DNA of 57,937 nt from a virus. Shown in pieces: positions 28,969 to 32,373 of this stretch. Within the stretch, counting starts at the first letter, position 1; each line of letters begins with the position of its first letter. Under the pieces are notes generated by a model, which was not told the origin of the DNA, ran no database searches, and saw only the letters and a list, made by a program, of their open reading frames with translations. The translations under genes and the position numbers were made by a program. The stretch covers positions 1-57,937 of IMG/VR virus record IMGVR_UViG_3300029135_000007. One strand, given 5' to 3'.

Positions 28969-29153
28969 TTGTTGTCTTTTGGTTGTTTGGGGAGTGGCAT
29001 CCAGAACGGCATAATGTCAGGAAACGACACCGCAACGGTCATTTTCACAACTTCTGCGCGTTTCGTATTGCTATACCAAACCAAAATGTTCCCCCTCGAA
29101 TCTCCATCCAATTTGTGAGGTGGATTTTTTACTATATCTCTCCATTCGTTCAT
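28965..29153 (-). CDS. DUF551-like protein (short)
   Basis: ...WRDIVKNPP... and C-terminal ...FWMPLPKQP. Confidence 0.5.
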   Translation of the reverse strand: MNEWRDIVKNPPHKLDGDSRGNILVWYSNTKRAEVVKMTVAVSFPDIMPFWMPLPKQPKDNK

Positions 29154-29368
29154 CCTTGTTCACCTCTAAATTCACTTCCGAGAAACCGCTTCTTGCCACG
29201 TTCCCGGTGCTTATCCTCGTAGTTGTGGTGGTACACGCTCTGGCTGTGGTTCAACTCGTACACGAATGCCTTGCGTTCTTCAAAGTCTTTTTTTCCCGCC
29301 TTGTACTTCTCGCAAGTGTCGTGGCAAGCTTGGTGGCGTGATGTGCAGTTGAGACAACAGGTAATCAT
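29150..29368 (-). CDS. small Cys/His-rich protein
   Basis: Start taken at MITCCLNCTSRHQACHDTCEKY; ATGA overlap with the methylase stop. Confidence 0.35.
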   Translation of the reverse strand: MITCCLNCTSRHQACHDTCEKYKAGKKDFEERKAFVYELNHSQSVYHHNYEDKHRERGKKRFLGSEFRGEQG

Positions 29369-30468
29369 TCTTCGCCGAATCTCCTTTTTGTGACGGCAAT
29401 GGGGAACTCCTCGATCTCGGAAGCCCATCGTGCCGTACCGTTTCCATAGGTCTTTTGCCAGACAAGCGGGAAGCCCCCTATACCATCGAACAGACTTCCT
29501 AGCGTGGCATTTTCGCCCAGATAAGGTTTCATCTTCTGTGCAATCCAGAACCACTGCGGTAGAGCAATGCTGTTTCCGAGTGCTTTGTAACGTGGGCTGT
29601 CAGCATACTTATGCTTCTTGCCTTTGCTATCCACCCATTCGCCGATGTCCGTCCATCCATCAGGGAAACCCTGCAACCGTTCACACTCAACAGGTGTCAA
29701 GCGGCGAACAATCCAGCGGACGATTTTCTCTGTAACCAGACACTCGCTACCGTTACCGATGTTCCCTGCTTTCGCTTTCAAGGTTGAGCATTTTCCGCTT
29801 TCTTTGTAGTGGCTAAAAGACTGTTCGTTAAAGGTATGGCGCTCAATCGCAATAGCCGTATAATCTGTGATTCTGTTTTCGTGGTCGCCGGTGATTGTCG
29901 GCACGATTTTGACATCACCATTTCCGCGAGCGTCATAAACAACAGGCTGAAACAAAGTCTGGTCTTGCAACGTGGAAAGTGTTGCGCTCTTTTCGGTCTG
30001 TACCAGTGCGCCTTTTCCGCCTCCGGAACATCTGCTACGGATTTTCAGGGTGTAGGAATTGCCCCCCCACCCCCCTATCACGTCCAGAAGGGCTTGCCTG
30101 AGAACTTCCGGAAGCGGCTTCCCACGCCTTGATGCTCTCGTCAAGATTCCCTGACAGGCTCGTGCGCTCAAATAGTATTTCTGTGGCACGTTGTCCTCTA
30201 AAATCCACGACAAGAGCGATTCTCTTTCGGCGTTGGGGAACTCCCCAACATTGAGCGTCAAGCTGTCGCCAAGCCAGAGACCATCCGTTTCCAGCGATTG
30301 CTCCGGCTTTGCTCCATCTGCCCCCCCTGCCCGAAGGTCGAGGAATTGAAACGTCTGGCTGCTCGATGCGGGCAAGTTCTTCCAGCACGGCTCTGAAATC
30401 TTCTCCTCCGTTGGAGCTGAACGCTCCTGGTACATTTTCCCAAATAGCGAAAGTTGGGTACATTCCAT
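29365..30468 (-). CDS. DNA (cytosine-5) methyltransferase, downstream ORF: target-recognition region, motifs IX and X, then motifs I and II at the C-terminus
   Basis: ...RRLTPVECERLQGFPDGWT (IX), KALGNSIALP (X), then TLGSLFDGIGGFPL (I, FxGxG) and WASEIEEFP (II) just before the stop. The true translation start is unknown; the upstream 434 nt overlap ORF 30035..30652. Confidence 0.75.
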   Translation of the reverse strand: MECTQLSLFGKMYQERSAPTEEKISEPCWKNLPASSSQTFQFLDLRAGGADGAKPEQSLETDGLWLGDSLTLNVGEFPNAERESLLSWILEDNVPQKYYLSARACQGILTRASRRGKPLPEVLRQALLDVIGGWGGNSYTLKIRSRCSGGGKGALVQTEKSATLSTLQDQTLFQPVVYDARGNGDVKIVPTITGDHENRITDYTAIAIERHTFNEQSFSHYKESGKCSTLKAKAGNIGNGSECLVTEKIVRWIVRRLTPVECERLQGFPDGWTDIGEWVDSKGKKHKYADSPRYKALGNSIALPQWFWIAQKMKPYLGENATLGSLFDGIGGFPLVWQKTYGNGTARWASEIEEFPIAVTKRRFGEE

Positions 30469-30652
30469 TTGTCGCTTTCCTCATTTCCTTGATGATTCGC
30501 GCGGCATCAACAAAAAGACCAGACCGCCCTCCGGCAAGTCCCGCCCTGCGTCCTGCAATGGACAAATCCTGGCATGGGCTGCCAAACGTGATGCAATCCA
30601 CAGGCTCTATCTGGTCGCCGTGAATCTTTGTAATGTCGCCCAAGTGCTTCAT
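30035..30652 (-). CDS. DNA (cytosine-5) methyltransferase, upstream ORF: motifs IV, VI and VIII only
   Basis: ITFGSPCQDLS (IV, catalytic PC), WENVPG (VI), GVPQRRKRIAL (VIII). No FxGxG upstream: an in-frame stop lies 13 codons before the ATG. Confidence 0.8.
   Translation of the reverse strand: MKHLGDITKIHGDQIEPVDCITFGSPCQDLSIAGRRAGLAGGRSGLFVDAARIIKEMRKATNGMYPTFAIWENVPGAFSSNGGEDFRAVLEELARIEQPDVSIPRPSGRGGRWSKAGAIAGNGWSLAWRQLDAQCWGVPQRRKRIALVVDFRGQRATEILFERTSLSGNLDESIKAWEAASGSSQASPSGRDRGVGGQFLHPENP
30062..30075 (-). repeat. homopolymer pair G6-T-G7 (coding strand) about 25 nt before the stop of the upstream methylase ORF
   Basis: Plus strand ccccccc a cccccc at 30062-30075; a further C7 run at 30321-30327. 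Loss of one base here would fuse the two methylase ORFs. Confidence 0.9.
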
Positions 30653-30705: not shown

Positions 30706-31311
30706 TCAGGACTTCGCCGAAGCGAAAGCCTTGCTCATATCAGCGATAATGTCGTATCGATCTTGATATTTGCTGTACACAGTCGTTCCGGTTCCAAGAC
30801 CAATCTGCGTCTGGTTGATGGAAGCAGGAACTATATAAATGCTTTCCTTCTCTTCGTTTTTTGCAATCAGAAAATAAACATCGCAAGTAGGGAATCGTTT
30901 TTCAAGATTAAACGAATAGCAAAAACTCTTATTTGCTCTGCTCGGCCTTGCCGTTTTCACATCAACCTTAACGCTGCCATTAACATAAAGGTCATAGGCG
31001 TATCTAGTTGACATTCGCTCAACCGCAAATCCATGTTCTTCCAGCAGTTTTGTAGCAAGGTCTTCGCCATACTTTCCGAATTGCGTTTCGCTTTCTTTCA
31101 TTTCGATATTAAGGATTTCAGCTATTTTGTAATAGCCACCCGGAAAACGGCGAATTGCATTTGTCAACTTGTCGTTTCCGTAATACTTGCTCAATTCACT
31201 TCTTGATGGCATTCTAGTTAAACCAGTGGCAGACATACAGGCTTTCACATACAGCAAGATTTTATCTTGCGTCCAATGCGTTTTTTCTTCCCGATTCATG
31301 CGCATCTCCAA
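30706..31311 (-). CDS. PD-(D/E)xK nuclease with N-terminal homing-endonuclease-associated-repeat-like module
   Basis: ...YAYDLYVNGSVKVDVKTA... gives D...D-x-K; N-terminal ...WTQDKILLYVKAC...SRSELSKYYG...AIRRFPGGYYKIAEIL; GC clearly lower than the flanks. Confidence 0.5.
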   Translation of the reverse strand: MEMRMNREEKTHWTQDKILLYVKACMSATGLTRMPSRSELSKYYGNDKLTNAIRRFPGGYYKIAEILNIEMKESETQFGKYGEDLATKLLEEHGFAVERMSTRYAYDLYVNGSVKVDVKTARPSRANKSFCYSFNLEKRFPTCDVYFLIAKNEEKESIYIVPASINQTQIGLGTGTTVYSKYQDRYDIIADMSKAFASAKS

Positions 31312-31728
31312 TCAGAAGGGCAACGAACCATCATCGTCAATCACAGAGAAGTCGTCTGCGTTACCCTGAGAATAGTTCTGTGGTGCATCCTGCGCCCGAT
31401 CGGCGGGTTTGCTGTCAGACTTGCCACCGCAGAAGTCAACCTTGTTCGCCATAATTTCTGTTGCGGTGCGGTTGTTTCCCTGCTTGTCGATATATTTCCG
31501 GGTCTGGATGCTGCCAGTCACCAGAATTAGGCTACCCTTCTGGAACCACTTGGAAACGAACAGTGCCGTATTACCAAATGCGGTGCAGTTGAAGAAGTCG
31601 GTTTCCTTCTGACCGCCACTCTGACGGTCACAAGCAATGCTGAACGTGCAAACATCCTTGCCAGACTTCGTGACCTTAGCTTCAGGCGTGTGAACCAGAC
31701 GCCCCTGAATTGCGATAGAGTTGAGCAT
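31312..31728 (-). CDS. ssb: single-stranded DNA-binding protein
   Basis: OB-fold N-terminus (MLNSIAIQGRLVHTPE...) and acidic tail ...DDDGSLPF. Confidence 0.9.
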   Translation of the reverse strand: MLNSIAIQGRLVHTPEAKVTKSGKDVCTFSIACDRQSGGQKETDFFNCTAFGNTALFVSKWFQKGSLILVTGSIQTRKYIDKQGNNRTATEIMANKVDFCGGKSDSKPADRAQDAPQNYSQGNADDFSVIDDDGSLPF

Positions 31729-31746
31729 TGTTTAGCCCTCCTTCGG

Positions 31747-32373
31747 CTATTTCTGTGCACAGTCCCAACACAGGACGCGCCCAAAGCGTTTTTTCGTGCT
31801 TCTTGCAGTTTCCAGCGGAGTGACTGTGCGGTTGTTGTACTGAATAGGCTGCAACTGCTTTCCGCAGCAAGCGCATGGGGGGATGGTTTCCGCTTCCGTT
31901 TGCTTCTGCTCAGGCTTGTTTGACCTGCTTGTAGTCTGCTTCTGGTACTCGTCCGTGTCAGCGTCCTTCGTATCGTCAATGCAAAACAAACCGTTCAGAG
32001 CGTACTTTCTGGCGTAGCTGCTTGCAGTGCCGGTAATCTGCGAATCGTCCATGCCCTTCTTAAACTCAGGCTCACGAGCGTATGCAGTTACCGTGTAGGT
32101 GGCACCATCCTGCGATTCAACTGTTGCGGTGGCTTCGATGTAGTGCCAACTGTCAACAATAACAGGCTTGTCGGAAAGCCGTAGCACAAGGCTATGTGCT
32201 TTCAAGATTGGCTTGACCGCTTCGAGGATGTCCTCACAGGAACGGTACTTGTAACCGCCAAATTTGTTCATCTGCCCTTTGGGGGCTTTCAGCTCTGACT
32301 GAACAGCCATCAGAGCTTCATGGATTTTGCTGTTGTCCATACGTTTCCTTTCTTTGGCTTCATTAGGCTTCAT
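31747..32373 (-). CDS. ERF-family single-strand annealing protein
   Basis: ...KFGGYKYRSCEDILEAVKPIL... and ...GTASSYARKYALNGLFCIDD... are typical ERF motifs. The start could instead be the internal MDNSK. Confidence 0.8.
   Translation of the reverse strand: MKPNEAKERKRMDNSKIHEALMAVQSELKAPKGQMNKFGGYKYRSCEDILEAVKPILKAHSLVLRLSDKPVIVDSWHYIEATATVESQDGATYTVTAYAREPEFKKGMDDSQITGTASSYARKYALNGLFCIDDTKDADTDEYQKQTTSRSNKPEQKQTEAETIPPCACCGKQLQPIQYNNRTVTPLETARSTKKRFGRVLCWDCAQK

Follow-up and report, generated by a model that had tools for sequence, protein, structure and literature searches.

A naturally circularly permuted C5-cytosine methyltransferase of gut phages with a predicted nested gene and two variable G-tracts

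The methyltransferase M.AquI has the canonical motif order and is constitutively split with a short overlap, and in Escherichia coli the C5-methyltransferase gene dcm shares a few codons at its end with vsr, a second gene on the same strand in another frame. In bacterial phase-variable methyltransferases, such as the Type III mod phasevarions and the restriction-modification genes of Helicobacter, Campylobacter, and Neisseria, the length of a homopolymer inside the open reading frame (ORF) varies and shifts the frame, which leads to a simple on/off switch of a chromosomal gene. In the Type H enzymes M.BssHII, M.Alw26I, M2.Eco31I, M.Esp3I, and M2.BsaI the ten C5-methyltransferase motifs are permuted, presumably by duplication and trimming. 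Another topology, named Type B, has its N-terminus between motifs II and III and is represented by the engineered enzymes cp62M.MpeI, cp58M.SssI, and evolved cpM.HaeIII variants, which were the most active permutants (Slaska-Kiss et al., PMC5944983). According to a survey from 2018, this topology had been engineered and was not found in nature (PMC5944983), an absence that puzzled protein engineers. Here we describe a methyltransferase locus on the minus strand of the IMG/VR virus record IMGVR_UViG_3300029135_000007, of which all 57,937 nucleotides were analyzed (the window in the following) and which probably represents a human-gut phage of about 58 kb related to the Faecalibacterium phages FP_Toutatis and Lelie. 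Taking all observations together, it can be assumed with good confidence that the locus combines a natural permutant, an older nested gene, and G slippage at two tracts, and that the window carries a switched-off or reduced allele.

The methyltransferase appears to be an orphan located within an early or recombination module, and its gene is distributed over two ORFs that overlap in different frames at positions 30035-30468 (434 nt). The coordinates, the motifs, the overlap, an upstream stop, and the G-runs had already been listed in a first-pass annotation of this DNA, and all of them were confirmed on the sequence. The features of the locus are the following:

30652..30035, minus strand: ORF1, 205 amino acids (aa), N-terminal half of the permuted C5-methyltransferase with motifs III (LGDITKI), IV (GSPCQDLS), VI (ENVPG), and VIII (QRRKR)
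30468..29365, minus strand: ORF2, 367 aa, predicted nested +1-frame gene (first ~130 codons) fused by frameshift to the C-terminal half of the methyltransferase, which holds the target-recognition domain (TRD), motifs IX and X, and finally I and II
30062..30468, minus strand: predicted nested +1-frame gene proper, with a dual-coding signature and a conserved ATG
30466..30482, minus strand: start region of the nested gene, with GAGG (30482-30479), a 10-nt spacer, and ATG (30468-30466)
30070..30213, minus strand: predicted C-terminal module of three helices in the nested protein (residues 86-133, LLSWILEDNVPQKYYLSARACQGILTRASRRGKPLPEVLRQALLDVIG), overlapping the methyltransferase linker after motif VIII
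30062..30075, minus strand: G-run 2 (G6-T-G7), the frameshift site
30321..30327, minus strand: G-run 1 (in the window a G7, which keeps the frame), the other hypervariable tract, bordering the frame-switchable segment on its upstream side
29365..29526, minus strand: permuted C-terminal segment, with the linker KPYLGENAT after motif X, motif I FDGIGG (29490-29473), motif II WASEIEEFP, and the stop

By profile score and motif set the locus encodes a C5-cytosine DNA methyltransferase. PF00145 matches ORF1 at 84.1 bits (profile positions 46-132) and ORF2 at 36.9 bits (positions 269-323), each above the cut-off of 22 bits, and intact relatives score 113-119 bits; TIGR00675 gives 103.5 for the relative L002 vs a cut-off of 100.65. 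The C5-methyltransferase motifs FDGIGG, GSPCQDLS, ENVPG, QRRKR, RRLTPVECERLQGFPD, and GNSIALP are all found across ORF1 and ORF2. However, they do not form the canonical I-to-X order in one polypeptide, as motifs III to X precede motifs I and II and the window encodes them in two frames. ORF1, with an in-frame TAA 13 codons 5′ of its ATG, is collinear with residues 1-196 of the intact sibling L227 (IMG/VR contig 3300045988_071131) and ends after G-run 2 with the 8-residue out-of-frame tail QFLHPENP, its stop lying 25 nt past the tract. ORF2 carries RRLTPVECERLQGFPDGWT and GNSIALP, followed by LGSLFDGIGGFPL and WASEIEEFP within its final 50 residues.

As judged from sequence comparison, a natural circular permutation has moved the termini of this enzyme to a site between motifs II and III and produced the order III-IV-VI-VIII-TRD-IX-X-I-II, in which the old C-terminal helix X would be joined to the old N-terminus via a linker of ~10 residues. 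When the intact permuted enzyme P0285 (425 aa) was compared by BLASTP with the canonical-order enzyme of Streptococcus phage Javan105, residues 1-380 matched residues 49-495 (E 2e-73), and residues 375-424 matched residues 1-48 (52% identity, E 2e-9). This mapping places the breakpoint between …TKRMPE and VKHLGD…, and therefore between motifs II and III. The permuted order suspected in the first-pass annotation is hence borne out, as is the remark that the breakpoint differs from that of M.BssHII, whereas its placement between motifs II and IV has to be corrected, LGDITKI being motif III. The same architecture, matched from the first to the last residue, is present in 80 of 80 related viral loci found in a scan of IMG/VR, nearly all of them on phage contigs of 55-60 kb. 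Because it recurs in each of these loci, nearly all of which keep the second frame open, the architecture is far beyond chance. Permuted relatives have a single ORF of 425-680 aa, with about 66 of 84 loci uninterrupted, and permuted enzymes are also abundant among database proteins of 425-426 aa. Two gut-phage GenBank records (L001 and L002, 83-87% nucleotide identity) show the arrangement as single ORFs of 453 and 591 aa, respectively, which start with MKHLGDITKIHG… and end with …LGSLFDGIGGFPL…WASE…AVTKRRFGEE. Among annotated phages, a contiguous X-to-I junction was found in only 11 records, which are human-gut phages and include the cultured FP_Toutatis and Lelie. The relocated I-II segment (C-terminal 130 codons) has a synonymous diversity (pS) of 0.415, a nonsynonymous diversity (pN) of 0.067, and a pN/pS of 0.16, and is therefore under ordinary purifying selection and no dead remnant.

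The enzyme thus has the Type B topology, since its chain is opened between motifs II and III and continues from helix X into motif I. The engineered Type B permutants are laboratory constructs, whereas here a natural and abundant family is found that is under purifying selection and has swappable TRDs. In contrast to the Type H enzymes, in which the N-terminus lies in the variable region with motifs IX-X ahead of I-VIII and both structural domains remain intact, the chain here begins at motif III and finishes with motif II, and the break falls inside the S-adenosylmethionine-binding subdomain. A literature search for natural Type B permutants reported after 2018 found none. The locus would therefore represent the natural counterpart of an engineered topology, and a whole family in human-gut phages with exchangeable target-recognition domains could serve as ready-made scaffolds for split or targeted methylation tools. 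Within the family, the N- and C-terminal parts are identical and the central recognition regions are swapped like cassettes (loci L004-L083), and gene length ranges from 1.27 to 2.5 kb among the 80 IMG/VR loci through exchange of this central region. P0242, a distant member of 605 aa, has an HNH endonuclease and a helix-turn-helix inserted in the loop between motifs IX and X.

The second open frame of the locus is, on the evidence of its sequence conservation, a real nested gene of ~140 aa in the +1 frame, which is presumably translated. Both overlapping ORFs had been noticed as protein-like before, and the second frame is indeed open in nearly all related loci; however, what had been taken for a variable region of the methylase is a separate nested gene, which in relatives terminates just after the G-tract. 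In 66 of 66 intact phage loci this ORF stands by itself, with a length of 131-220 codons and its stop a few codons past the tract; in the sibling L227 it ends with …GGWGAIPTP. Diversity was compared in the phage clade for 61 unique intact loci. Outside the overlap, where the methyltransferase frame is single-coding, its pS is 0.39-0.415 and its pN 0.067-0.068, and the +1 frame as a control has a pN/pS of 1.4. Inside the overlap, the pS of the methyltransferase frame is halved to 0.198, the +1 frame has a pS of 0.211, a pN of 0.099, and a pN/pS of 0.47, and the third frame is non-coding-like with 1.37. In a sliding scan, codon position 3 is the most variable up to about codon 54, then the pattern collapses at the internal Shine-Dalgarno (SD) motif and ATG, and synonymous diversity of the methyltransferase frame drops at codons 55-66. 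In the linker after motif VIII (codons 169-205) the pattern is inverted, with values of 0.22-0.53 at position 1 and 0.04-0.18 at position 3. As position 3 of the methyltransferase frame is the lowest, this order corresponds to a sense +1 reading, with neither an antisense gene nor coding by the methyltransferase frame alone matching it. An antisense gene as source of the constraint is thereby ruled out, together with the finding that no antisense ORF spans the module. Both frames are under purifying selection in the overlap, and constraint over the module is confined to the +1 frame. The dual coding considered in the first-pass annotation is therefore supported by frame-specific conservation across homologs, and this in two clades, as outlined below.

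The nested ATG, 61 codons into the methyltransferase gene, is conserved in 66 of 66 phage loci, and so is a GAGG motif resembling an SD sequence 10 nt 5′ of it, compared to a background of ~20%; in the window both are made of the methyltransferase codons E-M-R…T-N-G. The features expected of an overlapping gene are thus found together, namely a frame open across divergent homologs, selection in the alternative frame, and a conserved ATG with SD. An AlphaFold model of the nested protein based on an alignment of 52 sequences predicts residues 1-85 to be disordered and residues 86-133 to form three helices (86-92, 102-115, and 121-133) with a predicted local distance difference test (pLDDT) score of ~91. 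The consensus of this module is ES.LSQILE.NVP.KYYLSAKAC.GILRRA..RGK.LP..L..AL. The N-terminal part, predicted to be disordered, would ride on the codons of motifs VI-VIII, and the basic three-helix module would sit over the poorly constrained linker after motif VIII. Some lineages have insertions here, which in the methyltransferase frame read as low-complexity filler (GAGRGRKGDGDADCRRTKTDKTGEAG…) and in the +1 frame as coiled-coil-like sequence (EPGAAAKAMEMLIAEEQKRIRREKLAALNERKE…). Searches with the nested protein gave nothing significant in Pfam, NCBIfam, PADLOC, a PDB sequence profile, or Foldseek against PDB, and Foldseek against BFVD returned family members only. In PHROGs there was only a weak match to phrog_16143, which is labeled ‘DNA methyltransferase’, and the source names of the nested-protein entries are ‘hypothetical’ or ‘Uncharacterised protein’. 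A literature search for an overlapping gene in cytosine methyltransferases, including P1 Dmt, found no description. Like dcm and vsr, the two genes share nucleotides on the same strand in different frames, but here ~140 codons are nested in the interior of the gene and the product has no similarity to Vsr. Likewise, the 434-nt overlap differs from that in M.AquI, as it belongs to an independent nested gene.

Judged from its distribution, the nested gene is much older than the permutation, since it is also present in canonical-order C5-methyltransferases of phages and prophages of Firmicutes, Proteobacteria (including P1 dmt), and Actinobacteria. An exhaustive search for the nested family gave 3,210 cluster representatives, 959 of them at E ≤ 1e-10, and no Pfam domain was found in the members except for methyltransferase fragments in fusions. 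With tblastn, the module was found inside annotated methyltransferase genes of Faecalibacterium, Streptococcus, Vibrio, Pseudomonas, Caulobacter, and Mycobacterium phages as well as in phage P1 dmt and 531 plasmids, which are mostly P1-like. Seven cultured isolates were inspected, and in each of them the module matches in +1 relative to the annotated coding sequence (CDS). As a Proteobacterial replicate, 80 genome loci were fetched with the methyltransferase-frame protein of P1 Dmt only (51-98% identity). A +1-frame ORF of at least 139 codons spans motif VIII in 81 of 81 loci, with the module intact in about 78 of the 81, and the +1-frame ATG falls into one alignment column in 72 of 72 sequences. 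In P1 this ATG is at position 66728 of record AF234172, 18 codons before WENVPG, which corresponds to its relative position in the phage clade. GGAG is found 7 nt 5′ of the ATG in 64 of 72 sequences, with an SD background of 14-20% over both clades. For the module, the +1 frame has a pN/pS of 0.44 and the methyltransferase frame one of 1.20, and outside the module the methyltransferase frame has 0.29-0.39 and the +1 frame 1.1-1.5. P1 Dmt and the related prophage enzymes belong to the same C5-methyltransferase subfamily (…QRRRRxFVV…xLFE…) and would share the nested gene with its ATG, SD, and three-helix module, the +1-frame sequence of P1 including YFLSSK and SLPPLLQMALQSVAK; no annotation of the nested ORF is present in the P1 record. 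However, these enzymes have the canonical order, that of P1 is fused to a Dam domain, and no G-tract variation is seen in the P1 sequence inspected. The dual coding is accordingly ancient and not a product of the split, as it is found in P1 Dmt and other unsplit enzymes of canonical order, too.

Two annotated phages deserve mention at this point. In the finished isolate Mycobacterium phage Porcelain (L088, MF072690 63845-65045) the methyltransferase is annotated as two CDSs in different frames, gp116 and gp117, and the split lies downstream of the nested module. A nested ORF running into gp117 was considered and is ruled out by a stop at locus position 2158-2160. In the related phage Thibault, gp104, an 81-aa ‘hypothetical protein’, corresponds to the nested module.

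With respect to the split of the methyltransferase gene, the window differs from the commonest in-frame relatives at G-run 2, where these have GATA-G7-CAATTCC and the window has GATA-G6-T-G7-CAATTCC, which is 7 nt longer. The sibling L227 has G6TG6 at this position and encodes a single methyltransferase ORF of 428 aa plus a separate nested ORF of 140 aa. Its gene differs from that of the window at 4 of 1,288 positions, which are one extra G and three substitutions, and removal of one G from the window sequence gives a single ORF of 428 aa as well. The expectation that the loss of one G would fuse the ORFs into a polypeptide of roughly 430 aa thus turned out to be realized in nature. A one-G error relative to the common allele is ruled out, since the window is 7 nt away from the G7 allele and one G away only from the rarer G6TG6 sibling. 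The exact 367-aa ORF2 of the window was recovered from at least 57 contigs (95 index blocks), which belong to unrelated samples in ENA and Logan, and seven of seven inspected loci have the identical G6TG7 tract and the identical ORF1 of 205 codons. SRR27405642 matches the window with 100% identity over a locus of 6.1 kb. These G6TG7 loci share an identical block of ~2.2 kb among phages whose flanking modules differ completely, and such wholesale differences around an identical methyltransferase block indicate that the genomes are mosaic. The split in the window is a real allele and an assembly error is excluded, although the latter had been among the first suggestions.

Both tracts vary in length among relatives. 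At G-run 1 there are G4, G6, G7, G8, and interrupted forms, and at G-run 2 there are G6, G7, G8, and G9, of which G8, like GGTG5, gives the +1 state of the window and G9 the +2 state. FP_Toutatis and Lelie have G9 and G14, respectively, at G-run 1, neither of which is in frame, and are otherwise identical over 1.5 kb. In the Toutatis lineage, the lengths of G-run 1 range from 7 to 14 in 15 genomes, which are distributed over the three frame states with 5, 6, and 4 genomes. L209 (G8) and the intact L050 (G7) are 99.9% identical and differ in one G. These spectra support the slipped-strand variation proposed earlier, and the locus shows one hallmark of a contingency locus, a homopolymer of at least 7 nt within an ORF with frame-changing length differences between near-identical genomes. 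Phase-variable phage methyltransferases with these features did not turn up in a literature search on the subject. As in the bacterial phase-variable methyltransferases, the homopolymer lies within the ORF and shifts the frame, but here the gene is phage-borne, two tracts are involved together with coding in the alternative frame, chimeras occur (L220, P0138), and the variation is known from differences between genomes. In contrast to M.AquI, the split is an allele-specific homopolymer frameshift.

It can be assumed that the two G-homopolymers, which would flank a dual-coding segment of ~250 nt, gain and lose Gs readily, and that each slip would rejoin the two frames in another way. When both tracts are in frame, which is the majority state, the enzyme and the small nested protein are encoded. 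With tract 2 at +1 there is an N-terminal half of the enzyme and the nested gene is fused to the C-terminal half (the window, L073, L076, L080, L081, L083, and a G8 allele on 16 contigs), and the +2 state of tract 2 is found in L003. With tract 1 at -1, motifs III-VI are fused to the C-terminal part of the nested gene (FP_Toutatis gp14, L015, L032), and with tract 1 at +1 the N-terminal part of the nested gene is fused to motifs VII-…-II (Lelie orf49, L033, L209). When both tracts are shifted, a single ORF reads methyltransferase-nested-methyltransferase (L220, P0138). Gene callers are inconsistent at this locus, as the nested ORF, fragments, or chimeras are called ‘hypothetical proteins’ or ‘DNA methyltransferases’ (L003, L085, and many entries), and hundreds of artifactual fusion entries stand beside real products in the protein databases; the locus is mis-handled in this way in hundreds of assemblies.

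At G-run 1 the codons are AGG GGG GGC in the methyltransferase frame and GGG GGG GCA in the nested one. As Gly-Gly is encoded in both frames, every single-base change should be nonsynonymous in at least one of them, and dual coding may thus explain the persistence of the homopolymer. With the Gly-Gly codons fixed in both frames, the tract would not be silently breakable and would form a built-in mutational switch, which makes the locus a concrete and testable example of how overlapping genes could generate contingency loci in phages. For the window, the step from G6TG6 to G6TG7 ends the methyltransferase frame after motif VIII and lets the nested gene continue into the half with TRD-IX-X-I-II. 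Most likely, the full-length methyltransferase is off or strongly reduced as a result, as at contingency loci, and a phage population would then spread its risk between being shielded from methylation-sensitive restriction and being exposed to methylation-dependent restriction; both the on/off effect and any reversibility are presumed. We therefore favor the view that the window allele is off or attenuated and was born of tract slippage, with the nested module still encoded. The three substitutions between the window and L227 (G207R, G247V, A307T) are all derived in the window lineage, all nonsynonymous, and all located in the C-terminal half, at positions that are invariant in 24 other unique sequences; the branch of the intact sibling has no changes. 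By our estimate, three out of three nonsynonymous changes have a probability of ~0.04 at the usual pN/pS of the gene (~0.15) and of ~0.47 under neutrality, which is a hint that the window enzyme is no longer active. The G8 allele also has changes in conserved motifs, e.g., TGDHE to TDDHE.

Several observations weigh against this overall interpretation. The tract length differences are differences between genomes, the T interruption in the G6TG7 tract of the window should slow down slippage, and the window allele is fixed and unchanged over at least 57 contigs, which fits a stable variant more than a fast switch. The signal of relaxed constraint in the window lineage consists of three substitutions only, as the polarized comparison of nonsynonymous and synonymous substitutions (dN/dS) between frameshifted and intact lineages comprised two close pairs with three informative substitutions. 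The product of the nested ORF is predicted from sequence, and in the Proteobacterial clade the +1-frame constraint is confined to the C-terminal ~45 codons, the N-terminal part having no constraint of its own, so that this part may be a mere leader. Furthermore, the AlphaFold2 model of the intact permuted enzyme has a mean pLDDT of 35.6, obtained with a shallow alignment of 26 rows of near-identical sequences and trimmed fragments. As this model is unusable, the integrity of the fold is suggested by sequence conservation and by the published engineered analogs.

The alternative that survives best, although we regard it as considerably less probable than an off or attenuated allele, is a two-subunit enzyme, in which ORF1 (motifs III-VIII) and ORF2 (N-terminal part of the nested gene plus TRD-IX-X-I-II) assemble non-covalently and are active. 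The fragments Mpe[62-279] and Mpe[280-61] of a Type B permutant formed an active enzyme, but complementation in this published case was partial only (PMC5944983). The division in the window lies exactly where natural and engineered C5-methyltransferases complement, at the split position of the M.AquI type, with the ORF1 stop following the tract after motif VIII and ORF2 starting at its own SD and ATG, which are those of the nested gene. ORF2 nevertheless begins with ~130 foreign residues. Alleles with the nested gene fused to the C-terminal half outnumber those of the other direction 6:1 in the first 84 loci, there are three G8 vs one G6 in the IMG/VR scan, and the window allele is widespread; all this would be compatible with two functional subunits. 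However, most relatives and the nearest sibling L227 have a single ORF, and the derived changes at otherwise invariant positions of the C-terminal half, together with the motif changes of the G8 allele, do not fit a split that is conserved and selected as such.

For an off or attenuated allele it also matters whether recoding could restore some full-length methyltransferase, by ribosomal +1 slippage or by slippage of RNA polymerase on the G-run, the latter being an established phenomenon on homopolymers. The G7 run would allow perfect re-pairing of tRNA-Gly after a slip of one base, as reasoned from the sequence, and out-of-frame alleles are common and persistent. Nevertheless, no stimulatory element was found, although no search was aimed at one, 34 of 38 alleles in the window lineage are in frame, which argues against an obligatory recoding design, and the three about equally common frame states of the Toutatis lineage fit mutation better than a programmed shift in one direction, and we therefore consider recoding unlikely.

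With regard to the nested gene, the +1 frame might be untranslated, its conservation being a by-product of methyltransferase constraint, codon bias, nucleic-acid structure, or an antisense gene, and the database proteins being artifacts of gene callers. Many of the database members do derive from frameshifted genes, as fusions or as fragments, long spurious ORFs occur in GC-rich genomes (the +2 frame has a median of 99 codons), and the N-terminal two-thirds lie over highly conserved motifs, which forces some +1-frame similarity, and are unconstrained in Proteobacteria. On the other hand, the codon-position order over the module fits a sense +1 reading, with its own position 2 the lowest, pN/pS is 0.44-0.47 vs 1.1-1.5 in the control frames in two independent clades, the ATG and SD are conserved, and the alignment gives a confident helical prediction, which together make an untranslated frame quite improbable. 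The idea of an assembly or sequencing artifact at the homopolymer, with a single ORF as the true sequence, can practically be dismissed: the window is one G away from its intact sibling and G-homopolymers are error-prone on some sequencing platforms, but tract, ORF1, and ORF2 are identical in data from unrelated projects, two assembly pipelines, and backbones of different gene content, and the allele has three private linked substitutions.

Returning to the nested gene as a translated one, we are inclined to propose that a very large clade of C5-methyltransferase genes of phages, prophages, and plasmids from Firmicutes, Proteobacteria, and Actinobacteria contains an undescribed +1-nested gene, whose product with its conserved basic three-helix module is functionally coupled to the enzyme, e.g., as its partner or regulator or by counteracting methylation-dependent restriction, and that the two G-tracts in the Faecalibacterium-phage branch form a combinatorial frame switch. 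Depending on its setting, such a switch would give the enzyme together with the small protein, an enzyme in two pieces, or chimeras that have nested sequence in place of motifs VII-VIII. The obligatory linkage of the nested gene to a DNA-modification enzyme suggests a role in the restriction arms race between phage and host. P1 dmt and other methyltransferase genes that have been annotated for decades would have concealed this gene. Should it be translated, the gene lists of thousands of genomes are incomplete, and mutational studies of these methyltransferases may have confounded two proteins.

The neighboring genes of the methyltransferase in the window are encoded on the minus strand as well. 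An ERF-family recombinase and a single-stranded DNA-binding protein (SSB) upstream of the methyltransferase (31312-32373) form the early recombination module. Directly upstream of the methyltransferase, between this gene and the SSB gene (31312-31728), there is an ORF of 201 aa (30706-31311), which matches phrog_28936 of unknown function (1e-34) and, weakly, a PADLOC model of a Type II restriction enzyme (E 0.0097), and which contains a PD-(D/E)xK-like stretch YDLYVNGSVKVDVKT. It is not present at this position in L001 and L002, and if it is a nuclease partnered with the methyltransferase, this would bear on the need for an active split enzyme. On the 3′ side, the start of a Cys/His-rich ORF of 72 aa (MITCCLNCTSRHQACHDTCEKYK…, 29150-29368) overlaps the methyltransferase stop (ATGA), which suggests translational coupling. 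This ORF, which is without a family match, is kept 3′ of the methyltransferase in L001, L002, and L091-L097. L094, an otherwise near-identical phage, has an extra MT-A70-family methyltransferase gene downstream.

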